Assembly (NCBI GenBank): GCA_030621085.1
Contig: JAUXIJ010000003.1
Location: 17,588-81,587, forward strand
Length of the DNA: 64,000 bases
Direction: 5' to 3'
Source: Candidatus Cloacimonadota bacterium
GTDB taxonomy: Bacteria > Cloacimonadota > Cloacimonadia > Cloacimonadales > TCS61
Below the pieces are notes generated by a model. The model ran no database searches and was not told the DNA's origin. It saw nothing but the letters and a program-made list of their open reading frames with translations. This document shows, piece after piece, positions 502-17,190 of this stretch (its first letter is position 1; each line of letters begins with the position of its first letter). The position numbers and the translations under genes are program-made.

Positions 502-951
502 TTATTTCCCCCCTTTTTCAAATTTCGATATTTTGTCTATTCGTCTCTTATGCCTTCCTCCATCAAATTCGGTGAAAACCCATGTTTTTATGATATCTCC
601 TGCTTGCTTCTTGGAAATAAATCGTCCCTGAAGAACGAGGATGCTTGCATCGTTATGCTGACGGGATAAACGTGCAAGTTCCACTGAATTGCATAAAGCT
701 GCTCGGATTCCTTTCACTTTGTTAGCAACAATACTCATCCCAAGTCCGCTGCCACATATCAGAATTCCTCTTTCGCATTCACCTCTGGCAACTGCTTCTG
801 CAGCTTTGAACCCGGTATCAGGGTAATCCATGGATTCATTTGAGTGAGTACCGAAGTCTATAAGTTCATGTTCTGTCAGGAAGTCTTTAATGGCTTCTTT
901 TAATTCAAAGCCAGCATGATCGGAAGCAAGAGCTATTTTCATATTATTCAT
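502..951 (-). CDS. rpiB: Ribose-5-phosphate isomerase B (RpiB/LacA/LacB family)
   Basis: 149 aa. Contains [16 protein letters not shown] and [23 protein letters not shown] motifs. ATGA start/stop overlap with the upstream thiolase (948-951). Confidence 0.9.
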
Positions 952-2195
952 TCCTTCCTGAACACCATAGCTACGACAGTTTTATCATTTCCGCCCATAC
1001 TGGACATCATTCCAAAAGGTTTATCAGGGCTAATTTTCACCTGGCAGTCACCTGTTTTTCCTAATAATTGTTTTAAAACATCTACAGCCTGTCGTACACC
1101 ACTAGCTCCCGTAGGATGTCCATAGCCTACCAGACCTCCGGTTGTGTTAGTTGGGATAATTCCATCGGATTTTGTATTTCCATCTGTAATGAAATCTGCA
1201 CCTTCTCCATAACCAGCTACTCCAGCAGCTTCAACTGCCAGTAATCCTGCAATAGTAAAGCAATCATGCACATCCAACACACTCAGATCTGAGGGTTTGA
1301 TATCTGCCCGATCATAAGCTCGTTTAGCAGCGACTGCACAGGTAGAAAGTTTTGTAAGGTCTGGTGGGGGAGTGGTAAGATTATCCTGAACCTGGGCATA
1401 AGCAACAACTTCGATAGCGTTTTTCTGTTCCACGCCGATCTTTTTAAGTCCCTCTTCGGATGCAAATATCAAAGCCGAGCCACCATCAGAGACTTTTGAG
1501 CAGTCAAATACATTGATATGCTCGCAGAAAGCTTTTGGATTTGGTGGAGTCATACCGGTTGCTAAAAGGTCAGAATTTTTGTTGTGATTTTCCTGTGCAT
1601 CCGGATTTTTCCGGGCATTTTCAATAGCATTTACATACCAGTGAGCCATACCTGCTCGCACTTTTTCTTTACCAAATTTCTCATAACAAGCACCAGCACG
1701 CTGAGAAAATTGATCCGGGAAAAAATAGGCATGTCCATCTTTTCGTTCTCCAGAGAACCAGCCAGCACCTGCCAGATAGTCTGCTCCGTAAATTGCTTTT
1801 ACTGAATTCTGTACTTCAACTCCGATGCACATAACCACATCAGCTATATCAGCTAATATTGTTTTTATTGCTGTAGCAAGAGCCAATCCTCCTGAATCGC
1901 AAGCTCCTTCCACCCGTATGCAGGGTTTGTACTGAAATGTGGGATGGACCATGGGGAAAAATCCACCCAGGTTTCCCTGATTGCAGAATCGTGCTGCCAT
2001 AAAATTTCCGATTACACCTTCATCAATATTTTCCGGATTGCGAATCTGGTTAATTGAACCCAAACCTGCTTCTTTTATGTAGTGTTCGATTCCAGGGCGA
2101 GGTTTTTTGGGATGGAATTCTTTTCTACCTGTTCCCAGTGAAACAGTATTAAAACCTGCAGTTGCATATATTTTTTTTCTAAAATAACTCATCAT
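948..2195 (-). CDS. Thiolase-like acetyl-CoA C-acyltransferase (archaeal/SCP-x-like type)
   Basis: 415 aa. Nucleophile region VEGACDSGGLALA and C-terminal GGLVGYGHPTGASGVRQ are typical of the thiolase fold. The second ATG (2192) has better spacing to AAGGAG. Confidence 0.75.
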   Translation of the reverse strand: MMSYFRKKIYATAGFNTVSLGTGRKEFHPKKPRPGIEHYIKEAGLGSINQIRNPENIDEGVIGNFMAARFCNQGNLGGFFPMVHPTFQYKPCIRVEGACDSGGLALATAIKTILADIADVVMCIGVEVQNSVKAIYGADYLAGAGWFSGERKDGHAYFFPDQFSQRAGACYEKFGKEKVRAGMAHWYVNAIENARKNPDAQENHNKNSDLLATGMTPPNPKAFCEHINVFDCSKVSDGGSALIFASEEGLKKIGVEQKNAIEVVAYAQVQDNLTTPPPDLTKLSTCAVAAKRAYDRADIKPSDLSVLDVHDCFTIAGLLAVEAAGVAGYGEGADFITDGNTKSDGIIPTNTTGGLVGYGHPTGASGVRQAVDVLKQLLGKTGDCQVKISPDKPFGMMSSMGGNDKTVVAMVFRKE

Positions 2196-2203
2196 TACTC
2201 CTT

Positions 2204-3553
2204 TTATATAAAATTATTTATTGGACCATAAAGCCAGAAGAATCCGTTCATTAATACTTCGTTCACTTCTTTTTCGGAATTCGCAACTCCATTTTTAATC
2301 AAGTTTTCACCAATTTCTTTGGTGGTTTTCAGGAAATCGAGAGCCAAAGTTGAACCGTAAGTATTCATTCCTTTCAGGTTATTGAAATGAGTTTCGAGTT
2401 TTTCCATTTTTTTAGCATCCATCAGAAGTGCTCTCCATGGTGCAAATTTCTCATTAGTTGGATTAAGCTTTTTATCAATTTCTGCTCTCCAATCTTCATC
2501 GAACATTCGATATTTTCCTTCCTCGATATTGTAAACTCCGGCAGGACGATTTTTATCATATTTGATAAAACCATTTTTTTGAGAACCGTTAGGATTCTGT
2601 CCGCCTGAGATTTTCTTATCCATAAATTTATTCAGTAGATCACTATTCAGGTGTTCGAGTTTAAGGTGTGTTCTCATCACTCTTAACAGCGATTGGAAAA
2701 CATCGAGTCCAACATAATCGATAAGTTGGAAGATTCCCATAGGACGAACCAGAAAATCCTGCGATACTTTATTCATGATATAAAGAGCACCATGATAACC
2801 GTATTCATCTTTGAGTTCTTCCACTTTGTTCATAGCATAAAGACCGTCCCTGCTGAAATGCCCGTTCCCGATAAACCCGGAAATATCTGCTGCCGGAACT
2901 AATTTCTTACGCAATCTCTTACCAAATTCCAGACCGATTTCTTTCAATTCATCAGTCGTGTTATCAGCATAAATGATTTCCACCAATTTCTGAATTACAG
3001 GAGGATTATAAAAATGATAACCAACGATCCTTCCACCCAATCCTGCTTGTTCATCGAGATAGGAAATCGGTATACTGGAAGTATTTGTCAGGAACAAAGC
3101 GTCAGGTAAACAGATTTCTTTAAGTTGTTTCAGAACCTTAATCTTGATTTCCTCATTTTCAAATATTGCTTCAAAAACCAGATGTGAATCCTTAGCAATA
3201 TTGTAATCAGTTGTGAAATTTAAGAGTGCATAAGTATCATCAACAAATGCATTTATAATTTCTCCATTCTCGATCAGATCTTTCCTGTCCGAATAAATCT
3301 GTCTTAAAATAACAGTTGATTTTTCTGCAGCTTTAATAAGCTGTACTTTCATGTAACTGCGAAGTCCATCTAAGGCTTTTTCCGTAATATCCACAAGATT
3401 CAAACGGTAAATCTTATCGTTGTTTTCCGGTTTGAACTTTAGTTTGGACATTTCCTGGGCAACGAGAACAGCAATTCCGCTTCCCATTTTTCCCGCTGCT
3501 CCGATTACAGTTACGTTTTGTAACCTTTCGTCTAAGTTCATTAAATCCTCCAT
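2204..3553 (-). CDS. 3-hydroxyacyl-CoA dehydrogenase, NAD-binding, long form
   Basis: 449 aa. Rossmann motif VTVIGAAGKMGSGIA and HFYNPPV motif. The real start is probably Met5 (3541), preceded by GGAGG. Confidence 0.8.
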   Translation of the reverse strand: MEDLMNLDERLQNVTVIGAAGKMGSGIAVLVAQEMSKLKFKPENNDKIYRLNLVDITEKALDGLRSYMKVQLIKAAEKSTVILRQIYSDRKDLIENGEIINAFVDDTYALLNFTTDYNIAKDSHLVFEAIFENEEIKIKVLKQLKEICLPDALFLTNTSSIPISYLDEQAGLGGRIVGYHFYNPPVIQKLVEIIYADNTTDELKEIGLEFGKRLRKKLVPAADISGFIGNGHFSRDGLYAMNKVEELKDEYGYHGALYIMNKVSQDFLVRPMGIFQLIDYVGLDVFQSLLRVMRTHLKLEHLNSDLLNKFMDKKISGGQNPNGSQKNGFIKYDKNRPAGVYNIEEGKYRMFDEDWRAEIDKKLNPTNEKFAPWRALLMDAKKMEKLETHFNNLKGMNTYGSTLALDFLKTTKEIGENLIKNGVANSEKEVNEVLMNGFFWLYGPINNFI

Positions 3554-3608
3554 TTTATTATTTTATATTACTTTATTTTTCTGTTTTTCTCAATTCTCTC
3601 AGCTTAAC

Positions 3609-4385
3609 TCAATGATTCCACTCCGGTTTTCTTTTTTCCATAAATGCTTTCATTCCTTCTTCTGCTTCATCGGTTGAGAACAGCATACTGAAGGCTTCCA
3701 TTTCATAGGAATTAGCTGTTGTAAGATTTGTATCTATTCCGCGATTTATTACGGTTTTTGCAACACGAACTGCTGTGGGTCCAACTGCAATGATTTTATT
3801 AGCTACATTTTCTGCTTCTTCCATAAGAGATTCCTGGGTTGTTACTTTATTCACCAGACCGATCCTAAGTGCTTCAGAAGCATCGATAACGTCTCCTGTG
3901 AAAATAAGTTCCTTGGCTTTTCCTGTTCCCACAAGTCTTGGAAGTCTTTGAGAACCTGCGTGACCGGGAATGATTCCGAGCTTAACTTCCGGTTGACCGA
4001 ATTTTGCTTTTTCAGAAGCGATCCTGATATCACAAGCCATAGCAACTTCACATCCTGAACCAAGAGCAAAACCATTAACAGCAGCTATAACTGGTTTTTC
4101 CATATTTTCCATAAAAGTCAGAACCCGCTGACCGATTTGGCTGTATTCACGAGCTTCGAGAGAATTCATCTTTGCAAGTCTGGAAATATCCGAGCCGGCA
4201 ACAAATGATTTTCCTTCTCCTGTTAGAATAACAACCAAAATCTCTTTGTTGCTATTGAAATCCTGCAACGCTTTTTCTACTTCCAGAACTGTCTCAATAT
4301 TCACTGCATTGAGAACTTCAGGTCGATTGAATTTAATATAACCGATTTTTTCTTTCTGTTTAACAATTAGATATTTATAATCCAT
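3609..4385 (-). CDS. Enoyl-CoA hydratase (crotonase family)
   Basis: 258 aa. Contains GEGKSFVAGSDI, AAVNGFALGSGCEVAMACDIRIA and FMEKRKPEW, the crotonase fold signature. Confidence 0.85.
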   Translation of the reverse strand: MDYKYLIVKQKEKIGYIKFNRPEVLNAVNIETVLEVEKALQDFNSNKEILVVILTGEGKSFVAGSDISRLAKMNSLEAREYSQIGQRVLTFMENMEKPVIAAVNGFALGSGCEVAMACDIRIASEKAKFGQPEVKLGIIPGHAGSQRLPRLVGTGKAKELIFTGDVIDASEALRIGLVNKVTTQESLMEEAENVANKIIAVGPTAVRVAKTVINRGIDTNLTTANSYEMEAFSMLFSTDEAEEGMKAFMEKRKPEWNH

Positions 4386-4443
4386 ATTTCCTCCCTGTCC
4401 TCCGTAGTCCCGCTGTTTAGGATGAAGGTGGACGTTTATATTT

Positions 4444-4929
4444 CTATTCCAATTCTACGATCACCTGCAAAGCGTCAACCTGTTCACCTTCTTTTCCATT
4501 TATCTTTTTTACAATTCCATCCCGGGGAGAAGGTAGCTCATTCTGCATTTTCATTGCTTCAACTATTGCAAGTGTAATTCCGGATTTTACTTCATCACCC
4601 ACTGAAACCGGGACTTTAACTAATAATCCTGGCATTGGAGAAAAAACACTATTTCCTTTTTGCTGTTCGCCTGTCTTTGTTTTTGAAGTTTTGTCTTTTT
4701 CAAGGATATAATTTTCCCCATCGATTGAAAGATGAGTTTTATCTTTATCAGAGTAACAATAGATATTATAGATTTTATCTTCAGCTTTGAATGAGATCAG
4801 ATTAGATTCAACTTCGACATCCGAAATATTATATTCCTGTTTATCATTTATAATAACTTTGAAAAGATCATCTGTTTTCTCCAGATTGATCTTATGAACC
4901 TGTTCCAAAAAGTTAAATTTATATTCCAT
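4444..4929 (-). CDS. Biotin carboxyl carrier protein (biotinyl domain) with N-terminal beta-rich BT-like region
   Basis: 161 aa. Has the C-terminal biotinylation motif EAMKMQNEL. Confidence 0.8.
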   Translation of the reverse strand: MEYKFNFLEQVHKINLEKTDDLFKVIINDKQEYNISDVEVESNLISFKAEDKIYNIYCYSDKDKTHLSIDGENYILEKDKTSKTKTGEQQKGNSVFSPMPGLLVKVPVSVGDEVKSGITLAIVEAMKMQNELPSPRDGIVKKINGKEGEQVDALQVIVELE

Positions 4930-5006
4930 ATTTTAAACTCCAAAAATCACAGATTTCAAAATTTTAAAAAAGTTTTGGTATTTTAGTTTTTTAGACATTT
5001 TGGATT

Positions 5007-6506
5007 TTATTGTCCACATATCTCCCATTTTCCAATTTCCTGCCATGGAGTGGATTTTATTGTAGAAACTTTTTGAAAGTTAATTGCTGATTTTGCAAAA
5101 CCTACCTGTTTACTTAAAGCACCGGCTATCAGGGCAATATCTAATTTCTCCTGTTTTGGAAGAAGTTTTTCTTCGTGTTCATCAATAAAGTGAGTGTCAT
5201 AATTTCCTCTGCAAAAGCTTGGAGATTTTATGATTCGTTTCAGATATCCGATATTGGTTTTAATTCCTAAAATGATATAATTTTTCAAAGTTTCCGTAGT
5301 TCTTTTAATACACAAATCACGATTTTCTGCCCAGATTATTAGCTTGGAAAGAATTGGATCATAATGAGGAGGAACATTCCAATCCTGATAAATACCTGAA
5401 TCCACCCTAATTCCGGGTCCTTGAGGTTCGGATAAATATAGAATTTTCCCCGGAGAGGGAACGAAATTATTATCAGGATCTTCAGCATAAATTCGGGTTT
5501 CAATGGCATGACCGTTTTGTTTTATATGCTCTTGCCTTAATGATAACTTCTCACCAGCAGCGATCAATATCTGTTGTCTTACAAGGTCAATCCCAGTAAT
5601 CATTTCCGTGATAGGATGTTCAACCTGAATTCTGGCATTTACTTCCAGGAAATAGAACTTTTTATTTTTATCCAGGAGGAATTCAACAGTTCCGGCAGTT
5701 GTATAATTAGAGGCTTCAATAACTTTTTTTGATGCTTCTCCCATTTCAATTCTTAATTTATCGTTCAAAACTGGAGATGGAGTTTCTTCAATGATCTTCT
5801 GATGCCGTCTTTGGATGGAACATTCACGCTCAAAAAGATGAATACAATTTCCATGATTATCCCGCAAAACTTGGAACTCGATGTGATGTGGTTGTTCGAT
5901 GTATTTTTCTAAATAAATGGAATCATCACCAAATGAACTTAATGCTTCTCTTTGACTGATAGCGATACTTTTTCCCAAATCTTTTTCATTATGCACAACT
6001 CGCATTCCCTTTCCACCACCACCCATCGAAGCTTTGATCATCACAGGATAACCAACTTCTTTAGCAGCTTGTTTAAATTTATTCAAATCCGTGCAAGTCA
6101 TCTCCATTCCGGGAATGATTGGAACACTGACTTTTTTGACAGTGTTTCGAGAAGCGACTTTATCTGCGACAAGATTCAAAGTATTTGAATTAGGCCCAAC
6201 AAAGGTTATTCCATTATCTTCGCAAGCTTTGGCAAAAAGTTCATTTTCAGCCAGGAACCCATATCCGGGATGTATCGCATCACATTTGGTTTGTTTTGCA
6301 GCTTTAATGATAGCATCAATATTCAAATAACTGGAAAGTGGGGGTGAATCTCCAATCCATTCGATTTCATCCATAAAACGAAGATGAAGTGATTTCTTAT
6401 CGATCGTGGAATAGATCCCAATAGTGCAAATTCCAAGTTCTTTGCAAGCCCGAGCAACTCTTATGGCTATTTCACCTCTATTTGCAATTAATATTTTCTT
6501 AAACAT
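5007..6506 (-). CDS. Biotin carboxylase subunit of an acyl-CoA carboxylase (likely methylcrotonyl-CoA carboxylase alpha, BC part)
   Basis: 499 aa. Contains KILIANRGEIAIRV, GGGGKGMR and EVNARIQVEHPITE, the ATP-grasp biotin carboxylase motifs. Confidence 0.9.
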   Translation of the reverse strand: MFKKILIANRGEIAIRVARACKELGICTIGIYSTIDKKSLHLRFMDEIEWIGDSPPLSSYLNIDAIIKAAKQTKCDAIHPGYGFLAENELFAKACEDNGITFVGPNSNTLNLVADKVASRNTVKKVSVPIIPGMEMTCTDLNKFKQAAKEVGYPVMIKASMGGGGKGMRVVHNEKDLGKSIAISQREALSSFGDDSIYLEKYIEQPHHIEFQVLRDNHGNCIHLFERECSIQRRHQKIIEETPSPVLNDKLRIEMGEASKKVIEASNYTTAGTVEFLLDKNKKFYFLEVNARIQVEHPITEMITGIDLVRQQILIAAGEKLSLRQEHIKQNGHAIETRIYAEDPDNNFVPSPGKILYLSEPQGPGIRVDSGIYQDWNVPPHYDPILSKLIIWAENRDLCIKRTTETLKNYIILGIKTNIGYLKRIIKSPSFCRGNYDTHFIDEHEEKLLPKQEKLDIALIAGALSKQVGFAKSAINFQKVSTIKSTPWQEIGKWEICGQ

Positions 6507-7295
6507 TTATTTTGTCCAATCCGGCTTTCTTTTTTCGAAAAAGGCGTTCATTCCTTCCTGACCCTCGCCGGAAATTCTCATTTTAGAGATTACATCAGCA
6601 GTGTATTTTCCTGCTTCCTTTAGAGACATTTCTGGAACTTTGCTTAATAAATCTTTGCACATTCCTATTGCTTCCGGTCCGCTTGTAATAAGTTGTTTTG
6701 TAATACTTTTTGCAAAATCACTCATCTCTTCTAAGGGAACAACAAAATTGATGAGTCCTGCTCTACAGGCTTTTTCTGCAGTTAAACGCTCTCCAGTGAG
6801 AAAGAATTCTCTGCATCTTCCTTCACCACATTTTTTTACAACATAAGGGGAAATGCAAGCAGGAACAAGTCCTAACTTAACTTCACTGAAACTGAATTTT
6901 GCATGAGTTGCTGCTATCGCAATATCACAAACTGCAACTAATCCTGTTCCTCCTCCGATTGCTGCTCCGTTAACAAGGCAAATTGTAGGTTTTTTAATTG
7001 AATACATTTTATTGAACATTCTAGAAAGAGCGAGTGAATCTTCCAGATTTTCTTCATAAGAAAAATCTTTCATTTTCTTCATCCATTTCAAGTCAGCACC
7101 GGAACAGAATGATTTTCCTTTTCCAGTCAGAATTATAACCCGAATAGCATCTTGATCTTTCAAATCTTCAAAAACTTCGGTTAGTTCAGAGATCATTGTA
7201 TCATTAAATGCATTATGAATCTCAGGACGATTCAATGTAATATATGCAATTTTATCTTTTTTTTCGAGTAAAATTGTTTCAAATCTATTTTTCAT
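6507..7295 (-). CDS. Enoyl-CoA hydratase, methylglutaconyl-CoA hydratase-like by context
   Basis: 262 aa crotonase fold (GKGKSFCSGADLKWM, LVNGAAIGGGTGLVAVCDIAIA). It sits between the carboxyltransferase and biotin carboxylase genes with zero spacer to the latter. The specific substrate is inferred from context. Confidence 0.7.
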   Translation of the reverse strand: MKNRFETILLEKKDKIAYITLNRPEIHNAFNDTMISELTEVFEDLKDQDAIRVIILTGKGKSFCSGADLKWMKKMKDFSYEENLEDSLALSRMFNKMYSIKKPTICLVNGAAIGGGTGLVAVCDIAIAATHAKFSFSEVKLGLVPACISPYVVKKCGEGRCREFFLTGERLTAEKACRAGLINFVVPLEEMSDFAKSITKQLITSGPEAIGMCKDLLSKVPEMSLKEAGKYTADVISKMRISGEGQEGMNAFFEKRKPDWTK

Positions 7296-7342
7296 TTTTT
7301 ATCCTATTTAGAAATTTAGAATTTTAGTATTTTCGGATTTTT

Positions 7343-8947
7343 TTACATCCTAAACACTCCAAATTTATGATCGGGAATGGATGCATTGAGCGACATCGAA
7401 ATAGCCAATCCAAGAATATTTCTAGTATCCAGGGGATCTATTATTCCATCATCCCATAATCTTGCAGTTGAAAAATATACACTGGATTCATTTTCATATT
7501 TTTCGAGGATTGGTTTCCTGATCTCTTCGATTTCTGCTTTGGAAAGTTTCTTACCTTGCCTGGTTAGCGCTCTGACCTTAACATCCGTCAAAACTCCAGC
7601 AGCCTGCTCACCTCCCATTACACAAATTTTTGAAGTAGGCCACATCCAGAGAAGTCTGGGACTATAAGCGCGACCGCACATACCGTAGTTTCCTGCTCCG
7701 TATGAACCACCGATGATAATTGTAAATTTCGGAACTTGAGCGTTTGCAACAGCGTGTACAAGTTTTGCTCCATCTTTGGCAATTCCTTGATGTTCGTACC
7801 TTTTTCCAACTATGAAACCTGTAATATTCTGCAGGAACAGAAGTGGGATTTTCCTAACTGAACATAAAGAGACAAAATGAGCACCTTTTTGAGAGGATTC
7901 TGAAAATAAAACTCCATTATTTGCCAGGATTCCAACAGGATAACCCATAATTCTGGCAAATCCACAAACCAGAGTTTGACCATAAAGTTCTTTAAATTCA
8001 TGGAATTCGCTACCATCAACTATCCGGGCAATAACTTCTCTCATATCAAAAGATTTTTTCAGATCTTTTGGAATTATTCCATATAGTTCTTTCGGATCAT
8101 AAGCAGGTTCTTCAGGTTGAAATCTTTCTAAAGGATGTTTTCGAGGTGATGTAATATTTTCGATAATATTTCGTGTGATCTCGATTGCTTGTTCGTCGTT
8201 TTCTGCATAATGGTCTGCAACTCCGGAAATCCGGCAATGAACATCCGCTCCACCAAGTTCCTCTTCTGTTACAACTTCTCCGGTTGCTGCTTTTACCAGA
8301 GGTGGACCACCAATATAAATGGTTGCACCTTTAACCATAACTACTTCATCGCTCATTGCAGGTTGGTATGCTCCACCAGCAGTGCAGAATCCGACTACAA
8401 CAGAAATTTGAGGAATATTTTCTGCAGACATTCGAGCTTGATTATAAAAAATCCTGCCAAAATGCTCTTTATCAGGAAATGTTCCAACCTGGAGAGGTAA
8501 GAAAATTCCACCCGAATCAACAAGATAAATACAGGGAAGTCTATTTTCTAAGGCAATTTCCTGTGCCCGAAGATGTTTTTTAATAGTTTCGGGAATATAG
8601 GTTCCTCCCTTAACTGTTGCATCGTGGGCAATGATCATAACTTCATGGTTTTTCACCACTCCAATTCCTGTAATTATTGCTGCTGATGGATGTTTATTTT
8701 CATACATATCCCAGGCAGCTAAGGGACTTAATTCCAGAAATGGTGTATCAGGGTCTAAAAGTAATCTCAACCGATCCCGAACAAAAAGCTTTCCGCGTTT
8801 TTTATGCTTTTCGTGCATATAATCAGGACCACCTTTTCTAACCAAAGAAAGGCGATCCTTCAACTTCTTCACAGCTTCTTCCATAGATTTTGTGTTCTCT
8901 TTGAAAGACTGGCTGTTCGTGTTTATTTTGGATTCGATTTTATACAT
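7343..8947 (-). CDS. Acyl-CoA carboxylase carboxyltransferase (beta) subunit, methylcrotonyl-CoA carboxylase-type
   Basis: 534 aa. The length and motifs [37 protein letters not shown] and [16 protein letters not shown] are typical of MCC/PCC beta subunits. Confidence 0.85.
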
Positions 8948-8998
8948 AATTAACCTACTTGTATTTTCTCAATCAGGATTAATTGAGAAACAAAAAGA

Positions 8999-9388
8999 TT
9001 ATGCTAAAACAGCTTTATATCCGTAAAGTATAATTCCTGTTTTTCCCTCTTTCTGAATTTTTCTGAAAATAAGTTTAACAGAATTTCCAATTTCTAACTT
9101 TTCAGGATCACAATCCACAACTTGAGTTGTTATCCTCACTCCATTTTCAAGTTCCACAATTGCAATTGCATAAGGAACTTCTGCTTCAAATTGTGCGGGA
9201 GCAACTCGAATGATCGTGAACGTAATGATCTTTCCTTTTTCAGGTAAGATTACCTGTTCAAAATTTTGCGAACCGCATTTGTTACAGATCAATCTGGGAG
9301 GGAAAAATATTTTTCCACAGCCTTTACATTTTCCTGCTTCTAATCTGTACCTTTGCGGCATTTCTCTTCTATATCTTGGTGATGGCAT
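8999..9388 (-). CDS. DUF35 Zn-ribbon/OB-fold protein (scaffold of thiolase/HMG-CoA synthase complexes)
   Basis: 129 aa. CKGCGKIFFPPRLICNKCGS Zn-ribbon followed by an OB-fold-like C-terminus. Lies in the same operon as the thiolase and HMG-CoA synthase. Confidence 0.8.
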   Translation of the reverse strand: MPSPRYRREMPQRYRLEAGKCKGCGKIFFPPRLICNKCGSQNFEQVILPEKGKIITFTIIRVAPAQFEAEVPYAIAIVELENGVRITTQVVDCDPEKLEIGNSVKLIFRKIQKEGKTGIILYGYKAVLA

Positions 9389-9470
9389 TAAACCTCCTAA
9401 AATAAATTTCTAAAATTCAAAATTACTAAATTAAAAACCAACAAATCAAAAAATCCAAAAGATATCAACT

Positions 9471-9845
9471 TTATTTCAGACATTTGTAGATTATGGTTGA
9501 TAAAATTTTTATCAATTCAAGCGATTCATCCAAAAGAGTTTGAACAATTCCTTTTTTTAGTAATTTCCTATCGACAATTAGTCTTAACCAATATCTTGAT
9601 TCTTTGCATTCCTTGAATGAAATATCTACTCTATAAACGAAATCATTTATAGTTAGTGAACCATCAGCTTCTTCGAGATTTGCCCCTACTGAAGAACCAG
9701 CTTTTAATAATTGCCTTTTGATAATTCTGGCTTCATCAGTATTTGGTAGCTTTGAACATAATTCGAAAATGCCTAAAGCGAATTTATATGTTCTTTCCCT
9801 AAGTTCAATGCTGATACTGAATTTCTTTTGTAAATTCTTACTCAT
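9471..9845 (-). CDS. Four-helix-bundle protein (23S rRNA intervening-sequence protein / Avd-like family)
   Basis: 124 aa. Contains QLLKAGSSVGANLEEA and FKECKESRYWLRL, characteristic of the TIGR02436-type family. Confidence 0.8.
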   Translation of the reverse strand: MSKNLQKKFSISIELRERTYKFALGIFELCSKLPNTDEARIIKRQLLKAGSSVGANLEEADGSLTINDFVYRVDISFKECKESRYWLRLIVDRKLLKKGIVQTLLDESLELIKILSTIIYKCLK

Positions 9846-9877
9846 TTTCTTTTTACATTCTTTAGTTTTTTAGCATT

Positions 9878-11038
9878 TTAGTTATTTAAATTCTTCAGGA
9901 TGTGAACTACTGAAGAAGCTCCCGATCCCCCCATATTTTGAGCTAAACCGATCTTTGCATTCTTGATCTGTCTTTCTCCGGATTTTCCTGTTAACTGTTC
10001 ATAAATCTCCACAACTTGAGCAGCTCCTGTAGCTCCTACAGGATGACCTTTGGATTTCAATCCACCTGAAGTATTGATCGGTATTTTACCGGTTAATGCT
10101 GTATGGCCTTGTTCAGTGAATAGTCCACCTTTTCCTCTTTCAGCAAAACCGAGTTCTTCCAAAATACAGATTTCAGCGATAGTAAAACAATCGTGAACTT
10201 CTGCCAGATCGATATCAGATGGTTTTAATCCTGCCATTTTAAAGGCGAGTTCAGCAGATACTTTAACGGCATTTAATGCAGTTATATCGTCTCTTTGATC
10301 TAAAGCTAAAGAATCTGTTGCAACTCTGGAACCTACAATTTTAATCATAGGTTTTTGAAGTCTTTTAGCGACTTCTTCCGAAGCTAATATTATACAAGCA
10401 CCGCCATCAGAAACAGGAGAGCTATCCAGAACTGTTAAGGGATCAGCAACCAAAACAGCGTTTTTTACCTGATCAAGAGTGACTTTTCGTGGAAATTGAG
10501 CATTTGGATTCATCGAGCCGTTAAAATGATTTTTCACAGCAACCTGAGCAAGTTGATCTCTTGTTGTTCCATAACGGTGCATGTGTGCTCTGGCAATCAT
10601 TGCATAAAGTCCGGGAAAGGTAACTCCATGATAACATTCATATTCCTGATCTGCAGCTGTTGAAAGAGCAAAAGTTACATCAGCACCATCATTCATCTTT
10701 TCAACTCCACCAGCAAGCACGATATCAGAATTTCCGGATGCAATATCGAGAAATCCCATCCTGACTGCTAATCCTCCGGAACAGCAAGCTGATTCAACTC
10801 GAACTGCCGGAATTGGTGCCATTCCCAGATAATCTGCCATTAAAGCTCCGACGTGTTCCTGCCCAACAAAAAGTCCGGATGTCATCGTGCCAACATACAT
10901 AGAATCAAGATGATCGACTCCTGCATCTTTTATCGCTTTTAATCCAGCTTCAACAAATAAATCCCGGAATGAAGATTCCCATATCTCGCCAAATTTTGTC
11001 ATTCCGCAACCAATTATATAAACATCTCTCATTTTCAA
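9878..11038 (-). CDS. Acetyl-CoA acetyltransferase (archaeal-type thiolase)
   Basis: 386 aa. Contains [32 protein letters not shown] and CFTIAEI. Confidence 0.85.
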
Positions 11039-11043
11039 TCCTC

Positions 11044-12090
11044 CTACTCGTTCATAATGATCTTTTCACGGAATTTAGCATACTGACCGTAATCTAAATA
11101 AATCGGGTTATCTGCGAGCATTTCTCGGACCTTTTCTGCTTTATCCTGAACATCAATAATTTTATTAGTAGCTTTAAAAATGAAAGCATCACTTCCAGCA
11201 CCGGAACCAAAGGAAACCATAAAGATCAGATCATCGGGTTTTGCAACATCCAAAGTTGCAGAAAGACCTGTTGGAGAAGAACCTGAATATGTGTTTCCCA
11301 TTAAATTCACAACCCATCCGGGTTTCATCTGTTCATCCGTGAAACCGAGTTTTTTCCCGACAGTTAATGGGAATTTTCCGTTCGGCATATGGAAAATTGC
11401 ATATTTGAAATCAGATGGTTTATATCCGCTCTTTTTCAAAATTGCTTTTGCAGCTCCCTGAACATGTTTGAAATATGCAGGTTCACCTGTGAATCTACCT
11501 CCATGATGAGGATAGAATGCTCCTTCTCTTCTCCAGAAATCTGGAGTATCTGTGGTGTAAGAATGAGTGAATAACAATTCTGCGAGAATATTTTCCTCTC
11601 CAAAAATAAATGCTGAACCTCCGGCAGAAGCAGAAAATTCCAGTGCATCAGCAGGAGCACCTTGAGATGTATCCGCTCCGATCGCCATTGCATATTTTAC
11701 TTCTCCGGCTTTAACTAAAGCTTGAGCAACAAACATCCCTTCCGAACCTGCTTTACAGGCAAATTCAAAATCTGCAGTATGAAAATCTGGAACAATGCCA
11801 AGAGCTTCTCCTACAACAGTTCCTGAGGGTTTCACTGCATAAGGATGAGATTCCGAACCAATGTAAAGTGCACCGATCTCCTGCGGATCGATATTGCAGC
11901 GTTTCAACGCTTTCTTTGCTGCTGCTACTGAAATTGTAATTGTATCTTCGTCTAAACCGGGAACAGATTTTTCCTGCAGCATTAACCCGCGCTTGATAGC
12001 TACTGCATCTTTTCCCCATTGATGAGCTATCTGTTCAGCTTTTATCCGGAATTTTGGAATGTACGAACCATATCCGATAATTCCAACCAT
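11044..12090 (-). CDS. Hydroxymethylglutaryl-CoA synthase (archaeal-type, ~350 aa)
   Basis: 348 aa. N-terminus [33 protein letters not shown] nucleophile region, and a 5-nt spacer to the thiolase. Confidence 0.85.
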
Positions 12091-12150
12091 TAAACCTCCT
12101 TTTTATATAAAATCAAAAATTTCAAAATACTAACTAACTGAAATCAATTT

Positions 12151-12723
12151 TTAAAGCCAATGAATTTTTCCTTCTCTTCGAGGAGGAGCAGGTGATTCTC
12201 TATCATAATAACCAAGAGCAATCCCGCATAGGAATTCTTTGTTTTCAATGTTCAATAGTTTTTTAACCTGTTCTGCTTTTTGCTCTACTCTTCCCAGAAC
12301 ACAGGTTCCTAAACCTTCTTTATGCGCTAATAGAAGTAGATTTTGTATTGCCAGGAATACACTTCCCATTGAGGTTATCGGTTCTTCTCCGGGAATTATA
12401 TCAGAGAAGGCTAAGATTACAACAGGTGCATTTCCAATATTGCCAAAGAATTTTCCTGTTAATTCAATTATTTTTGGTTTGAGTTTTCCTTCCAGAGTCG
12501 GTTTGACATATTCCCAGAATTCGTTATAAACTTCTGTAAATTCTTTTAGTTTATCCCCTTTTAAAACATAAAAATGCCAGTTCTGGAAATTCTTCCCTGA
12601 CGGTGCCCAGATTGCTGTTTGAAGAATTTTGTGTAACAACTCATCGGGAACTTCTTTATCGTTGAATGAACGAATACTTCGTCTGGTTTTGATTATTTCG
12701 TAAATATCGTTTGAAAATGACAT
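12151..12723 (-). CDS. Nitroreductase family protein
   Basis: 190 aa. Contains IIKTRRSIRSF and WAPSGKNFQNWHF, typical of the nitroreductase fold. Confidence 0.8.
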   Translation of the reverse strand: MSFSNDIYEIIKTRRSIRSFNDKEVPDELLHKILQTAIWAPSGKNFQNWHFYVLKGDKLKEFTEVYNEFWEYVKPTLEGKLKPKIIELTGKFFGNIGNAPVVILAFSDIIPGEEPITSMGSVFLAIQNLLLLAHKEGLGTCVLGRVEQKAEQVKKLLNIENKEFLCGIALGYYDRESPAPPRREGKIHWL

Positions 12724-12748
12724 ATATTACTCCTCTATAAAGCCAAAT

Positions 12749-12904
12749 TTATATATTATATTTTCCAGACAACATTTTTTTCTTTGAAGATGAAGGAAAT
12801 CCCTTTACGATTTCCTGCAATCGAACAAGGATTTTTACCTTTTCTTCAAATGGTAATTTTGCCAAATGCTGATGATATTCTTCTATTTTTTTAATTGAAA
12901 CCAT
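12749..12904 (-). CDS. Hypothetical 51-aa protein immediately downstream of hsdM
   Basis: Below the ORF-track cutoff. My reverse translation from ATG at 12902-12904 reads MVSIKKIEEYHQHLAKLPFEEKVKILVRLQEIVKGFPSSSKKKMLSGKYNI. It begins 5 nt after the hsdM stop. I recognise no family. Confidence 0.25.
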   Translation of the reverse strand: MVSIKKIEEYHQHLAKLPFEEKVKILVRLQEIVKGFPSSSKKKMLSGKYNI

Positions 12905-12909
12905 TTTTT

Positions 12910-14409
12910 CTATAAATCCTTACTCTTCAACTTTTCCATCACATGAATAATTTCCTTTCCATGAGTATCAATAATTGAAATCAGTTCTTCAGGAGACCTT
13001 GTATCTTCTTCAATTTTTCTATTTGGATTAACTGCTTTTATATCGTAATTCTTTTCTTGGATTTCTTCTAATGAAACTTTCCATGAATTTTCGCTCTCTT
13101 TCTTTTGTGGAAGTAAGCTAAAGAATTCATCAAAATGCTGCATATTGAGAAGTTGTTTTTTAGTTACCTTTATATCGGATAAATCATAATACCAGATTTC
13201 TTTAGTTGGTTCACCTTTTTTGAAAAAGAGAAGATTGGTTTTACTGGCTGCACCAGCATTAATAAATACTTTGGGTGGAAGACTTACAATACAAAACAGA
13301 TTGCATTCATTAAGCAGTTTGCGTTTTGTTTGAACAAATGATTTTTCATTGGTGCGGAAAAGAACCCCTTCGTCCATTACAATTCCGCACCTGCCGCCCG
13401 GTTTTAAGCTATCTATCACATGCTGGAGAAATAATACCTGCGTAGCTCTTGTTTTGTAGGCAAAGCTTGTTTGTGCTTCTTTTCCCTCTTTTCCTCCAAA
13501 AGGTGGATTGGTTAGAACAACATCAAAAAGTGCAGGAGCACTTTGGAAGAGACCCCCATAGACTTCATTGCCTGTAAGAGTATTTCCATGCCAGATATGC
13601 GGTTCATCGATTTCATGAAGAACAAGATTTGCAAGTGCAATTGGGTAAATAAGATTCTCTTTTTCTCTGCCATAAAAAGTTGTGGTTTTTAGAGTTTCAA
13701 TATCATTTGCTGTTTTTACTTTTTCTTTTGTATGTAAATAAGCTTGAGCTAAAAAACCACCGGTTCCACAGCAAGGGTCATAAACTGTATCTCCAATCTG
13801 GGGATCGATTACTTTTACTAATACACGAATAACTTCTCTGGGAGTGAAGAACTGACCACCATCATTATTCTTCTCTCCCATCTTAAGAAGCAATCCTTCA
13901 TAAACTTGAGAAAGTGTGAACATGTGGGTTTCTTCAACTTGAGGTAAAGTAAGTTCATGAATTTTATCAAGAATATCTAAAAGGTTTCGTTCTGTATCGA
14001 TCCCGGTTTTCTCAATATAGGAAAATACTTCACTGATAACTTTCTGACGAGAAGTTGCACCCAGTTTTTCTTTTAACTTTCTGAGAAAAGGTAAAAGCTC
14101 TACATTCACGAAACTCATAAATCCACCGAGTGTTCCTATTTGTAATTGCTTTCGTTTCTCTCCATCCGGTGCTGCCCAATCCTGCCAGCGATATGGATAT
14201 TCAAGGGAAGGACTGAAACTGACGCCAACCGCTCTTGCTTGCTCTTCCTCTATTTGTTCCTTTTCATCGAGTATTCTCAAGAAAAGCATCCAGGTAAGCT
14301 CAGGAACATACTGCAAAGCACCAGCTCTGCCGGAACGACGCATAATATCGCAGATGCTTTTGATATAAGAATTCAGGGATTTTGGTGTGGTAATTTGCTT
14401 TTTTCTCAT
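12910..14409 (-). CDS. hsdM: Type I restriction-modification system, DNA methyltransferase subunit
   Basis: 499 aa. Contains GQFFTPREV, DPCCGTGGFL and LTNPPFGGKEG (N6-adenine MTase motifs I and IV). 4-nt overlap with hsdS. Confidence 0.9.
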   Translation of the reverse strand: MRKKQITTPKSLNSYIKSICDIMRRSGRAGALQYVPELTWMLFLRILDEKEQIEEEQARAVGVSFSPSLEYPYRWQDWAAPDGEKRKQLQIGTLGGFMSFVNVELLPFLRKLKEKLGATSRQKVISEVFSYIEKTGIDTERNLLDILDKIHELTLPQVEETHMFTLSQVYEGLLLKMGEKNNDGGQFFTPREVIRVLVKVIDPQIGDTVYDPCCGTGGFLAQAYLHTKEKVKTANDIETLKTTTFYGREKENLIYPIALANLVLHEIDEPHIWHGNTLTGNEVYGGLFQSAPALFDVVLTNPPFGGKEGKEAQTSFAYKTRATQVLFLQHVIDSLKPGGRCGIVMDEGVLFRTNEKSFVQTKRKLLNECNLFCIVSLPPKVFINAGAASKTNLLFFKKGEPTKEIWYYDLSDIKVTKKQLLNMQHFDEFFSLLPQKKESENSWKVSLEEIQEKNYDIKAVNPNRKIEEDTRSPEELISIIDTHGKEIIHVMEKLKSKDL

Positions 14410-15605
14410 AACTCACCTCTAAACGCCTTCCTCAAAATTGTCTGTGGTAAGGCATTAATAGCTTCTAATTGCTTTTCAATAGATGTACGAAGTTTCTCTA
14501 CTTCTGACATTTTTTCTTTGAGTACATCAACTATATATTGCTGGACTGTTAAAAGTGGTATGGGAATATCTAATTTTTTTAATAATTTATAGTGTCTGCT
14601 ATAACCGAGATTTCTAATTTTAAAACTTGATAAAGCATAGTAAAAATATTTTGTTAAAATTATATTTTTATTAGGGATTAATACTTTAGTTCCATCAGCA
14701 CCAATAGCAAAAGGAAAATTAATATATTTAAATATTCTTGTATGATCACCAAAGATTATAACAGGTAATTCTTCTTTATAGATGTTTATTTGATCATCAG
14801 TATAACCACATATTAAATCTTTTCCCTGGTCAATAATAGGATATTTTCCACTTTCTTTATATTCTTTTTGTAGAATTCCTTTTAATTGTAATCCTTTTCC
14901 TTTTATAATACATTCATTAAAATTTTTCCTCTCCCACTTCTTTGCTTCTTCGCTTTCAAAAACTTCTCTCAGGTAAGCAGAGGGAAGAGCTTTAACTGCT
15001 TCCAGTTGCTTTTCGCAGGAAGTTCGGGCATTATCAATTTCTTGTTGTAGTTCCTGGATTTTTGATGCTATGCGTTTTTGTTCTGAGATTGGAGGGAGAG
15101 GGATTTCAAGATTAAGTAATTTTTCACGTTGTACAGCGGCTTGTCCAATCCATCTGTTGCAAATCATTTCAAAAACACGTCTATACCACAATAATTGAAG
15201 CCATAAAGTAAAATAAATCGGATTAAGAACTCCTGTTATTGTCCTTAACCGAGATAGGTGGTTACTATAAAGAAAAAAACCATTTTCCTCAGTAAATAAA
15301 GCTGTTTTGCCGACTAATTCTACACTGTTGGTATTGTTAAATATAACATCCCCAGATTGCAGTCTATATTTGTTAACTTGGTTCTGTGTGGCTGGAACTC
15401 TGAGAATGGTTGAGAGGTCTATCTTACATCTACTAGAGATATTATTCATTCTTAATTGTATATAACCACAAGTCTCATCACGTTTCCCACATGCAAAACC
15501 AGGTTGAATTTCTTGGATGACTTCTCTCAATCTCTCCCATTTCCAGCTTGGTGGGAGTTCGGGTTGTGGATTTTGGTTTGAGGAATTATTTATTTTGGTT
15601 TTCAT
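14406..15605 (-). CDS. hsdS: Type I restriction-modification system, specificity subunit
   Basis: 399 aa with two target-recognition halves. Each is followed by a conserved helical spacer (IPLPPISEQKRIASKIQEL... and IPIPLLTVQQYIVDVLKEK...LRKAFRGEL). Confidence 0.85.
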   Translation of the reverse strand: MKTKINNSSNQNPQPELPPSWKWERLREVIQEIQPGFACGKRDETCGYIQLRMNNISSRCKIDLSTILRVPATQNQVNKYRLQSGDVIFNNTNSVELVGKTALFTEENGFFLYSNHLSRLRTITGVLNPIYFTLWLQLLWYRRVFEMICNRWIGQAAVQREKLLNLEIPLPPISEQKRIASKIQELQQEIDNARTSCEKQLEAVKALPSAYLREVFESEEAKKWERKNFNECIIKGKGLQLKGILQKEYKESGKYPIIDQGKDLICGYTDDQINIYKEELPVIIFGDHTRIFKYINFPFAIGADGTKVLIPNKNIILTKYFYYALSSFKIRNLGYSRHYKLLKKLDIPIPLLTVQQYIVDVLKEKMSEVEKLRTSIEKQLEAINALPQTILRKAFRGEL

Positions 15606-15668
15606 TTTTAATTATACCTTTGGTGCCTTTGTCCTCTTTGGTGTGTTTATACAGTGTTAAAGTCGTTT

Positions 15669-15767
15669 TCATTTAAAATCCTTCTGTAGAAAAAACCAAA
15701 TATTCGCCAAAATTGCCAAACAAATGCCAATAGTTATGTCCGATAAATGTCTGTTATTGCAATTCAT
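15669..15767 (-). CDS. Candidate 32-aa hydrophobic peptide (speculative)
   Basis: Distal part of track ORF 15669-15872. Internal ATG at 15765-15767 is preceded by AAAGGAAGAGAGT. Sequence is MNCNNRHLSDITIGICLAILANIWFFLQKDFK, with one predicted TM helix. Lies in the hsdS/AlbA_2 spacer. Confidence 0.2.
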   Translation of the reverse strand: MNCNNRHLSDITIGICLAILANIWFFLQKDFK

Positions 15768-15831
15768 ACTCTCTTCCTTTTTTCTCCGGTTGTGCAATTG
15801 TTGTGCAATAGATATGCAATTAAGGCAATTA

Positions 15832-17190
15832 TTATGCAATAACATAATAAGCCCCTGCTCCCTTTTTTCCACTTTCTTTCAATACTTCTTTCTCAACTAA
15901 AATCCTTAAGTCATTGGTGGCTGTATTTCTTGAACAAATATTTATCTCCTGGTACTCCTTATTCGTTATCTTGACTTTCTTTTTAACATACATCACTGCT
16001 TTTATCTGTCTTTCATTCAATCCCTTCTTTGTTAAATATTCTTCTGTATAAATATCTTTGTGAAAATAAACAGAAAAACCACCCATTTCTTCTTTGTATC
16101 CCGGTTCGGGTAATGCTGCTTCCTTCATCCAGTTAACCATTCTCACTGTTCCGCTGCCATATTGTTCAATAAAACCTGCAAGATAGAAAACTTTTGCAAT
16201 TAAAGGATTTCGCAGATATGACTGGTGTGGTTTTTTCAGTTGCCCGATTGTTATGCCTTCTGGAAGTCCACCCGGATTGGAAAACCAGATATGGTCATCA
16301 TATACTTTGATAACAATGAAATTTGCTATATTAAAGTAATCTCTATGAGTAAGTGCATTCAGCAGAGCTTCACGAATAGCAGTAATAGGATAATCCCAGA
16401 TGTCTTGTCGTTCTATTCCTTTTATATCGTAACGAACACTTATGAATTGTTTTATGATTTTTATAGTTTCTTCAAATTGCTGAAAAAGATTTCCTTTAAC
16501 CCATTTATCGTCAATTATAGTGGTTTCTGTTTTGAACCTACCAATCCGAATGCAAAGATTGATAAAGTGTTTTTGAGGATTATTTCCAAATAGGAGAACA
16601 GCACCGTTTGTCAGTTTTCCATCAACAAGAAGATCCAGTTTTTCCAGTATGATTTGTTGTGGTTCATTAAGGGATACATTAGTAAGTCTATTGTTATTCA
16701 CAGCAAGATGAATAAAATTTTTAACGGAATCAGAATCAATCTCCTCCAAAGAAATATCAGTTATTATAGAATCCCACGGTTTTCCTTTTAAAAGCAAAAC
16801 TTTGAGTTTTTGCTGGTTCATCTCTCTGGTTGTGTTTCCGATTCGTTCATAATAACGACCTTCATAAGAGACAAGATAGCCTGAATGAACAACCCTGACT
16901 GTAATAACTCGTTTTCCTTCAATATCTATTGTCTCAATCTCAGGATAGAGAGAAAGTTTATTTACAATGCGGTTAGTTAAATCCTCCAGAAATCTGGTTG
17001 ATAATTCAATTCCTACAGGATTGCTATTTTTATCAACTCCAAGAAGGATTATCCCACCTTTTGTATTTGCAAAAGCTGAGATAGTTTTATAAAATGCTTT
17101 ATTGGGGATTTCTTTAAATTCTGCAGTGTTTGTTTCTCCTATTGCCAGTAGCTTTTTTAATTCTTTTTCATCCATATTATAAAAATTCAT
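15832..17190 (-). CDS. AlbA_2 (divergent AAA / Schlafen-like) + HATPase_c_4 + C-terminal HTH protein
   Basis: 452 aa. N-terminal GETNTAEFKE...ISAFANTKGGIILLGVD is the AlbA_2 signature. REALLNALTHRDY...EQYGSGTVRM is the RecG-C/HATPase_c_4-like signature. ATGA overlap with the radC-like gene. Confidence 0.8.
   Translation of the reverse strand: MNFYNMDEKELKKLLAIGETNTAEFKEIPNKAFYKTISAFANTKGGIILLGVDKNSNPVGIELSTRFLEDLTNRIVNKLSLYPEIETIDIEGKRVITVRVVHSGYLVSYEGRYYERIGNTTREMNQQKLKVLLLKGKPWDSIITDISLEEIDSDSVKNFIHLAVNNNRLTNVSLNEPQQIILEKLDLLVDGKLTNGAVLLFGNNPQKHFINLCIRIGRFKTETTIIDDKWVKGNLFQQFEETIKIIKQFISVRYDIKGIERQDIWDYPITAIREALLNALTHRDYFNIANFIVIKVYDDHIWFSNPGGLPEGITIGQLKKPHQSYLRNPLIAKVFYLAGFIEQYGSGTVRMVNWMKEAALPEPGYKEEMGGFSVYFHKDIYTEEYLTKKGLNERQIKAVMYVKKKVKITNKEYQEINICSRNTATNDLRILVEKEVLKESGKKGAGAYYVIA

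Follow-up and report, generated by a model that had tools for sequence, protein, structure and literature searches.

Results

Gene content of the locus

The window analysed here is the whole 64,000-nucleotide stretch of contig JAUXIJ010000003.1, taken from a 3.19-Mb metagenome-assembled genome (MAG) of Candidatus Cloacimonadota (completeness 96.9%, contamination 2.6%). It carries a trio of genes for an archaeal-type synthase (HMGCS) of 3-hydroxy-3-methylglutaryl-CoA (abbreviated HMG-CoA), an archaeal-type acetoacetyl-CoA thiolase and a DUF35 scaffold protein, followed by genes for methylcrotonyl-CoA carboxylase (MCC) and a probable 3-methylglutaconyl-CoA hydratase (Table 1). The array, which extends from 948 to 12723, is co-directional on the minus strand with spacers of 0-82 nt. 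No terminator-like site was found in these spacers, and a promoter and terminator scan of the locus returned counts at or below the shuffled expectation. An earlier note, made from the sequence alone, had described these genes as lying on one strand with short spacers. All of its open reading frames (ORFs) were found again on the minus strand and its families agree with Pfam and NCBIfam; its coordinates and descriptions are right, although its gene list left out a 124-aa ORF between the thiolase and DUF35 genes. Near-identical loci were found in other Candidatus Cloacimonadota MAGs, with HMGCS identities of 93-98%. The A-rich words AAAATCCAAAA and CTAAAAAACTAAA (minus-strand sense; repeat families D1, D5 and D12) recur in the spacers at 4930-5006, 7296-7342, 9389-9470, 9846-9877 and 12091-12150.

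The HMGCS scored 530.7 bits against NF003274 (cut-off 244) and 512.7 bits against TIGR00748, both archaeal equivalog models, and aligned over its full length with the solved enzyme of Methanothermococcus thermolithotrophicus (6esq_I, 430 bits). Residues E80, C112, H234 and N266 align with E82, C114, H238 and N270 of 6esq_I, so that the catalytic tetrad is complete, and the tetrad motifs are conserved in all 26 bacterial HMGCS rows compared. The thiolase scored 547.6 bits against PRK06064 (cut-off 420) and 397 bits against 6esq_A, with the motifs SACCSGG (CxS), EVHDCF (HDxF) and KGHPVGATG (GHx) intact. The DUF35 protein combines a zinc ribbon (CxxC...CxxC) with an OB fold. The catalytic motifs of the trio are retained across the 25-26 bacterial relatives that were fetched. 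Residues of the HMGS tetrad and the thiolase motifs are required for HMG-CoA formation and have been lost in repurposed bacterial trios (PMC12960953). By its motifs, the trio looks catalytically canonical, of the type that forms HMG-CoA, and we infer that its proteins assemble into one complex.

When bacterial and archaeal rows were compared, no fixed clade-specific substitution marking a 'reverse' enzyme was found in HMGCS or DUF35. The thiolase comparison gave a single K/R difference, and some of its archaeal rows are probably paralogues. In a maximum-likelihood tree, for which sampling was biased by the search method, the bacterial HMGCS sequences formed one clade (100/99), with an Asgard sequence as the closest archaeal row at weak support. 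The 124-aa ORF, a member of the 23S_rRNA_IVP family, occupies the same place in loci L011-L015 and has no homologue there in L003-L010. Divergent copies (39-43% identity) occur near mutase genes (L005:7370-7804, L012:1193-1627 and 12296-12685). It behaves like a mobile-type variable passenger.

The carboxyltransferase encoded after DUF35 was compared with solved chains. Its scores of 728 bits to the MCC beta subunit of Pseudomonas aeruginosa (3u9r) and 704 bits to the human one (8j4z) stand well above those to geranyl-CoA carboxylase (GCC, 471 bits), most chains labelled propionyl-CoA carboxylase (PCC, about 240-280 bits) and GcdA (150 bits). The single top chain was 9tps (751 bits), which is deposited as a PCC beta subunit. 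Judged on similarity as a whole, the protein is of the MCC type and not of the PCC, GCC or Gcd types. The MCC alpha subunit is split here into separate genes for biotin carboxylase (BC) and biotin carboxyl carrier protein (BCCP). For the crotonase encoded between MCC beta and BC, the best NCBIfam models were PRK07468 and gamma-carboxygeranoyl-CoA hydratase, each below its cut-off, and the closest solved chains are uncharacterised crotonases. A hydratase gene at this slot is conserved in relatives, and its role is probably that of a methylglutaconyl-CoA hydratase. Downstream, the adjacency of the second crotonase and the 3-hydroxyacyl-CoA dehydrogenase (HADH) is conserved in L003 and L004. Another, distant carboxylase set occurs upstream of the trio, a few kb away, in three loci (L012:3871-7555, L014:4319-6332, L015:3521-7299), with about 50% identity to the window in BC and about 30% in BCCP. 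In L012 and L015 it is preceded by a carboxyltransferase of 34-35% identity.

Trio and lyase alternate as partners of MCC

A sample of 121 genomes from the phylum, including this one (G000), was searched for the trio, MCC and HMG-CoA lyase. Canonical HMGCS was found in five genomes (G000, G083, G050, G066 and G094), which represent four genera in two families. An MCC beta orthologue was found in six: the same five, plus G092. The trio stands beside MCC beta, with no lyase, in five of the six MCC-positive genomes. A lyase-like gene was found in the sample only in G092, which has no trio, and the 115 MCC-negative genomes yielded neither trio nor lyase. Searches of the four other trio genomes returned no HMG-CoA reductase (HMGR) and no lyase. 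The gene order in G092 is EtfB-EtfA-HdrA-HdrD-MCC beta-hydratase-fused MCC alpha-acyl-CoA dehydrogenase (ACAD)-lyase-like-lyase-like. With their counterparts in the window, its HdrA shares 76% identity and its HdrD 69%, and its fused 683-aa MCC alpha is 49.5% identical to the BC. On gene content, G092 is a natural control, in which the same pathway and electron module have a lyase end, whereas the other five have a trio end. The G092 hydratase gene (L042:9205-9974) falls into two ORFs (144 and 100 aa), whether by a frameshift, by gene disruption or by a fault of assembly.

A second sample comprised 101 genomes from the Acidobacteriota-type phylum of an Aminicenantia MAG that also bears the trio. 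Here, MCC beta was called strong at E <= 1e-180 and at least 57% identity, and a lyase high-scoring at 340 bits or more. Strong MCC beta was found in 40 genomes, 12 of which carry the trio and 20 a high-scoring lyase (a count that includes G149, an unpublished genome); none carries both. Two of the remainder have only an HMGL-like paralogue of 238-269 bits and six have neither. The trio lies within 3 kb of MCC beta in nine of its 12 genomes, and the lyase usually adjoins MCC. As far as gene content tells, the same MCC is partnered in both samples either by the trio or by a lyase, the two excluding each other. Two further gene classes were seen in the second sample. One is a separate HMGL-like class of 250-280 bits in genomes without MCC. 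The other comprises carboxyltransferases with 45-47% identity to MCC beta, which stand directly beside sub-cut-off lyase-like genes of 181-215 bits (G200:C30, G139:C44, G173:C68).

Conservation of gene order

The order HMGCS-thiolase-DUF35-MCC beta(-hydratase-BC-BCCP) is conserved in more than 12 Cloacimonadota MAGs, two WOR-3 genomes, one unclassified genome and one of Phycisphaerales. This unit persists at identities down to 69% for HMGCS and 70% for MCC beta. Moreover, the trio-MCC beta order is found in nine genomes of the Acidobacteriota-type sample. Given an order conserved across phyla, the adjacency of trio and MCC is not accidental. Where the trio has no adjacent MCC (Aminicenantia MAG, L017), the genome still encodes an MCC beta orthologue of 71-77% identity. 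The genes that follow non-adjacent trios include a branched-chain amino acid-type binding protein (L017) and a Leu/Glu-type dehydrogenase (L022). Neither HMGR nor lyase was found in five extra trio genomes from outside the phylum sample, for which completeness is not given.

Within the phylum sample the cluster is patchy, being present in five of 121 genomes and absent from G062, a genome of the same genus. However, G066 and G094 (L044 and L043), which belong to a different family from G000, share 87-93% identity with it in HMGCS and 86-91% in MCC beta. Patchy occurrence together with high identity between families suggests that the cluster has spread laterally within the phylum. Two loci labelled Armatimonadota, L003 (JABMPU010000183.1) and L010 (JAUWNO010000120.1), are 95-98% identical to those of Cloacimonadota and have the same order; they are probably mis-binned or mislabelled.

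Genome-wide presence and absence

The earlier note had no HMG-CoA lyase in view within its piece of the window, and this holds genome-wide. No lyase was found in the 96.9%-complete genome, where the NF004283 profile gave no match at E <= 1e-20. The single match among HMGL-like genes is a 638-aa PycB/OadA homologue, so that a hidden lyase of this kind is rejected, as is a canonical lyase partnering the carboxylase, which the note had put forward as a check. It had also named a complete mevalonate pathway elsewhere in the genome as a finding that would make the trio part of isoprenoid biosynthesis. HMGR (PF00368) was found neither in this genome nor in nine other trio-bearing bacterial genomes, and the genome encodes IspH of the methylerythritol phosphate (MEP) pathway.

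No family-I CoA-transferase (PF01144) was found in the genome; an exit through acetoacetate via CoA-transferase and a decarboxylase of the Aib type are thereby both rejected. The genome does encode a VorB-type branched-chain 2-oxoacid:ferredoxin oxidoreductase, other oxidoreductases of the OFOR family and IOR, together with two acetate kinases and two weaker Buk-like matches. No LeuA-type gene was found in 113 of the 121 sampled genomes of the phylum, this one among them, whether or not they carry the trio. The LeuA-type genes that were found (510-590 aa) are confined to one genus with small complete genomes of 1.5-1.6 Mb. Since nearly all sampled relatives without LeuA are also without the trio, we reject the trio as a necessary compensation for leucine auxotrophy.

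A catabolic supercluster split by a restriction-modification island

Beyond the nitroreductase gene upstream of HMGCS lies a type I restriction-modification (R-M) island, which sits between that gene and a lactonase-like MBL gene. In L002, L005 and L009 the sequences flanking it (20480-20494 and 12739-12742) abut, exactly so in L002. Because the flanks of relatives abut without the island, the whole stretch is one catabolic supercluster in this lineage; by the same comparison the island is an insertion that splits the supercluster and stands outside the pathway.

The far side of the island holds a B12-dependent mutase set, HdrD/HdrA-like proteins with EtfAB, three ACADs and two Ptb-like genes. 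The closest solved chain to the mutase large subunit is the 2-hydroxyisobutyryl-CoA mutase HcmA (4r3u, 567 bits), with methylmalonyl-CoA mutases at about 450-505 bits. We propose that the set forms a branch from isobutyryl-CoA to butyryl-CoA, and that the HdrD/HdrA-like proteins with EtfAB are the electron outlet of acyl-CoA oxidation. The three ACADs are candidates for isovaleryl-CoA, butyryl-CoA and 2-methylbutyryl-CoA dehydrogenases. In G092, the ACAD next to MCC alpha shares 45% identity with ACAD2 and 44% with ACAD1; similarity does not separate the substrates and so does not single out one of the three as the isovaleryl-CoA dehydrogenase. The two Ptb genes are the probable entry or exit of short branched acyl groups, and with the two weak Buk-like kinases encoded elsewhere they may activate or release isovalerate and isobutyrate. 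In published schemes, the anaerobic isobutyrate module consists of a mutase with beta-oxidation, and the isovalerate module of carboxylation, lyase and beta-oxidation (PMC7382037). The supercluster holds an isobutyryl-CoA set (mutase and beta-oxidation) and an isovaleryl-CoA set (ACAD, MCC and hydratase), without the lyase.

Table 1. Features of the catabolic supercluster and of the island within it, by position in the window.
Positions	Strand	Feature	Evidence or remark
948-2195	minus	second SCP2-type thiolase-like protein, 415 aa	Thiolase_C_1 + Thiolase_N; every NCBIfam match sub-cut-off
2204-3553	minus	3-hydroxyacyl-CoA dehydrogenase, 449 aa	PF02737 + PF00725
3609-4385	minus	short-chain enoyl-CoA hydratase (crotonase), beta-oxidation module	PRK05809 351.8 bits, cut-off 394
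4444-4929	minus	BCCP, part of split MCC alpha	PF00364; EAMKM biotinylation motif
5007-6506	minus	biotin carboxylase (BC), part of split MCC alpha	PF00289, PF02786, PF02785; TIGR00514 626.5 bits
6507-7295	minus	probable 3-methylglutaconyl-CoA hydratase (LiuC/AtuE-like crotonase)	PRK07468 and gamma-carboxygeranoyl-CoA hydratase models, both sub-cut-off
7343-8947	minus	MCC beta (carboxyltransferase) subunit	solved-chain comparison
8999-9388	minus	DUF35 scaffold protein	zf-ChsH2 PF12172 + OB_ChsH2_C PF01796
9471-9845	minus	23S_rRNA_IVP four-helix-bundle ORF, 124 aa	PF05635, 66 bits
9878-11038	minus	archaeal-type (SCP2-like) acetoacetyl-CoA thiolase, 386 aa	PRK06064, 6esq_A alignment
11044-12090	minus	archaeal-type HMG-CoA synthase (HMGCS), 348 aa	NF003274, 6esq_I alignment, E80-C112-H234-N266
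12151-12723	minus	nitroreductase-family protein	PF00881; upstream neighbour of HMGCS in most Cloacimonadota loci
12740-20482	minus	type I R-M island (hsdM, hsdS, AlbA_2/HATPase_c_4, RadC, hsdR)	Pfam
21360-24339	minus	B12-binding small subunit, ICM-like acyl-CoA mutase large subunit (21764-23395), MeaB GTPase	PF02310, TIGR00641
24362-29382	minus	HdrD-like FeS/CCG protein, HdrA-like flavoprotein, EtfA, EtfB	
29491-32899	minus	three acyl-CoA dehydrogenases (ACADs)	
33420-35658	minus	two phosphate acetyl/butyryl-transferase (Ptb-like) genes, cupin gene between	PF01515 twice, PF07883

Discussion

A proposed thioester-conserving end to leucine and isovalerate degradation

The locus is best explained as the central part of a supercluster for branched-chain acyl-CoA catabolism in an anaerobic, uncultured member of the Cloacimonadota. 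Within it, we think it fairly probable that the complex runs in reverse in leucine or isovalerate catabolism, splitting HMG-CoA to three acetyl-CoA. Isovaleryl-CoA would arise from leucine via a transaminase and the VorB-type oxidoreductase, or from isovalerate via Ptb/Buk. An ACAD would oxidise it to 3-methylcrotonyl-CoA, with the electrons leaving through EtfAB and the HdrA/HdrD-like proteins. The split MCC (beta, BC and BCCP) would then carry out the ATP-dependent carboxylation of 3-methylcrotonyl-CoA, and the LiuC-like hydratase would yield HMG-CoA. In the place of the lyase on which ordinary bacteria rely, the trio would convert HMG-CoA and two CoA to acetoacetyl-CoA and acetyl-CoA, and thence to three acetyl-CoA. 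Through a shared CoA site, exergonic thiolysis would draw the uphill retro-synthase step forward, mirroring the channelling logic of the archaeal complex. All three thioesters would be retained, giving one acetyl-CoA more (about one ATP via Pta/Ack) than a lyase with a CoA-transferase. No acetoacetate-activating enzyme would be necessary, in keeping with the PF01144 search, which found no such protein in the genome. The same thiolase, with the crotonase, HADH and ICM-like mutase, could also take valine-derived isobutyryl-CoA to acetyl-CoA.

With neither reductase nor lyase found, consumption by the trio of the HMG-CoA made by MCC and hydratase is the simplest closed pathway. We infer that the flux runs this way, that HMGCS is reversible and that the ATP balance comes out as given. 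A catabolic direction is indicated by the lyase-type sister cluster of G092, by the ACAD, Etf/Hdr-like and Ptb context and by the amino-acid-degrading gene content of the genome. The conserved ATP-grasp BC points the same way, since it is ATP-dependent and suits carboxylation but is needless for decarboxylation. Moreover, LeuA is absent across the order regardless of the trio, so that a supply of leucine is not required of it. A lyase-independent link between HMG-CoA and acetyl-CoA in leucine catabolism was the first of two alternatives in the earlier note, and it is favoured by the exclusivity of trio and lyase, the conserved BC and the ACAD, Etf/Hdr-like and Ptb flanks.

Several points weigh against this proposal. 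The HMG-CoA synthase reaction is generally treated as practically irreversible, and we know of no experiment in which any HMG-CoA synthase works physiologically in reverse. From textbook values we estimate about +25 kJ/mol for condensation by the thiolase and about -20 to -30 kJ/mol for the reaction of the synthase. The sum would then be roughly thermoneutral, and Pta/Ack, together with the channelling of acetoacetyl-CoA through the shared CoA site, could pull it toward acetyl-CoA. Etf/ACAD systems run reductively in some anaerobes, and sequence gives no direction. Co-transcription of the trio and MCC is read from gene order and short spacers, and a lyase of unrecognised family may be at work. 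In the second sample, a strong MCC beta (E <= 1e-180) is missing from half of the trio genomes (12 of 24), of which four carry only the 45-47% carboxyltransferase, and two of the 24 have an HMGR that is not adjacent to the trio. Furthermore, four of the genomes with both trio and MCC carry an HMGL-like paralogue of 268-280 bits elsewhere, a class seen in MCC-less genomes as well. Our counts include related genomes, which are not independent; they overstate the statistics and are to be read as a pattern.

Alternative explanations

The pathway could instead be biosynthetic or bidirectional. The trio would make HMG-CoA, the hydratase would dehydrate it, MCC would serve as an ATP-forming decarboxylase and ACAD/Etf would reduce the product to isovaleryl-CoA. 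The isovaleryl-CoA would go into iso-branched lipids, into leucine (by way of VorB and a transaminase) or into isovalerate as a sink for electrons. We consider this route unlikely, although HMG-CoA formation is the canonical activity of the trio and Ptb genes lie in the supercluster. The genome also lacks LeuA and has VorB, which could carboxylate isovaleryl-CoA. A near-equilibrium synthase/thiolase pair would, unlike a lyase, permit reversibility, and reversible catabolic pathways are known in syntrophs. However, the MCC/Etf/Hdr cluster of the sister genome G092 ends in lyase-like genes, which indicates catabolism, and the sampled genomes without LeuA (113 of 121) manage without the trio. BC and BCCP are conserved even though decarboxylation needs no BC, and the decarboxylase family of the myxobacterial AibA/B type is absent from the genome. 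Roughly estimated, the net synthesis of isovalerate is endergonic at the acetate and H2 levels typical of digesters. Furthermore, the ACAD/ETF pairs that have been tested ran only oxidatively (bioRxiv 10.1101/2024.07.05.601840). The second alternative of the earlier note, which had invoked such a biosynthetic route, is weakened as a result, and its myxobacterial analogy fails at the decarboxylase, there being no PF01144 protein in the genome.

Quite unlikely, in our judgement, is that HMG-CoA is removed in some other way, by an unrecognised, non-homologous lyase or through an unknown product of HMG-CoA or 3-methylglutaconyl-CoA. The thiolase and DUF35 would then serve mainly in beta-oxidation of the butyryl-CoA that comes from the mutase branch, leaving HMGCS with a secondary or regulatory task. 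The crotonase, HADH, second thiolase and ICM-like mutase of the cluster do need an acetoacetyl-CoA thiolase, and some trio genomes have no strong MCC beta. The trio of Pseudomonas fluorescens cleaves acetoacetyl-CoA and makes no HMG-CoA (PMC12960953). Unlike in P. fluorescens, however, the HMGCS tetrad is intact in all bacterial rows. HMGCS always leads the unit, and the strict alternation of trio and lyase in MCC-positive genomes is hard to explain unless HMGCS handles HMG-CoA. We see only a slim chance that the complex renders the whole route between acetyl-CoA and isovaleryl-CoA reversible and close to equilibrium, with an extra ATP from leucine or isovalerate in one direction and, in the other, with MCC as ATP-forming decarboxylase, de novo synthesis of isovaleryl-CoA, iso-lipids and (through VorB) leucine from acetyl-CoA in LeuA-less bacteria. 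Ordinary isoprenoid biosynthesis, with the trio feeding a mevalonate pathway and the carboxylase genes as mere neighbours, is hardly credible: no other role is established for the canonical complex, which is that of archaea, but the missing HMGR and the presence of IspH contradict it, only the two second-sample genomes mentioned above have an HMGR, and the trio keeps its place next to MCC across phyla.

Relation to known systems

The solved thiolase/HMGCS/DUF35 complex of M. thermolithotrophicus (6ESQ and 6ET9; Voegeli et al. 2018) comprises the same three families. That complex and the window trio share the one-unit arrangement, the tetrad, the CxS, HDxF and GHx motifs and the zinc ribbon. 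In contrast, the window trio occurs in an MEP-pathway bacterium without HMGR, is wired to an MCC-hydratase pair whose end point is likewise HMG-CoA, and is proposed to cleave rather than to form it. An IVP passenger splits its thiolase and DUF35 genes, and its HMGCS falls in a bacterial clade of its own.

On the preferred, catabolic reading the locus is to be compared with liu-type clusters. With these is grouped the anaerobic isovalerate pathway that Stieb and Schink reportedly described in 1986. In the Pseudomonas liu cluster and the isovalerate pathway of Desulfococcus multivorans (PMC5109826), as is proposed here, ACAD, MCC alpha and beta and methylglutaconyl-CoA hydratase lead to HMG-CoA. 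Syntrophic isovalerate degraders share the Etf-linked anaerobic electron outlet, which is assumed for them (PMC7382037). The published anaerobic pathway terminates in a lyase (PMC5109826, PMC7382037), whereas the window genome has no LiuE/HmgL lyase, splits MCC alpha and has the trio in the place of the lyase. The lyase version is retained in the sister genome G092.

The myxobacterial alternative isovaleryl-CoA pathway (MvaS, LiuC, AibA/B, AibC) likewise links acetyl-CoA with a C5 branched acyl-CoA by an HMG-CoA synthase and a methylglutaconyl-CoA (de)hydratase. Here, however, the HMGCS is archaeal-type and comes with thiolase and DUF35 instead of MvaS, AibA/B (PF01144) are missing, and a complete ATP-dependent MCC stands in a catabolic context. 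Bacterial three-part architectures outside the mevalonate pathway are also seen in PhlACB, MucABC and the ACAT/HMGS-DUF35 complex of P. fluorescens, whose thiolase acts in the cleavage direction (PMC12960953). Those complexes have lost the HMGS tetrad, PhlC and MucB have lost HDxF, and no HMG-CoA is made, whereas the window trio keeps all motifs. The window HMGCS scores 188 bits against PhlA, compared with the 430 bits to the archaeal enzyme. With tetrad and HDxF intact, membership in the Phl/Muc Friedel-Crafts acylases is ruled out.

Significance

Literature searches found no published description of a trio-MCC pathway, of HMGCS or MCC in Cloacimonadota, or of a lyase-free leucine pathway. 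If the proposal is true, an HMG-CoA synthase would have a catabolic role for the first time, and leucine and isovalerate degradation would have a new end that conserves the thioesters. One extra ATP per substrate would be a large gain for syntrophs living near the thermodynamic limit. Metabolic surveys of anaerobic digesters and sediments that define isovalerate degradation by carboxylation, lyase and beta-oxidation (PMC7382037) would miss all organisms with the trio variant, Cloacimonadota included. A function would also be at hand for part of the roughly 1,000 bacterial HMGS/ACAT/DUF35 loci that are without a known role (PMC12960953). The archaeal channelling design would then be one that can be used in both directions.

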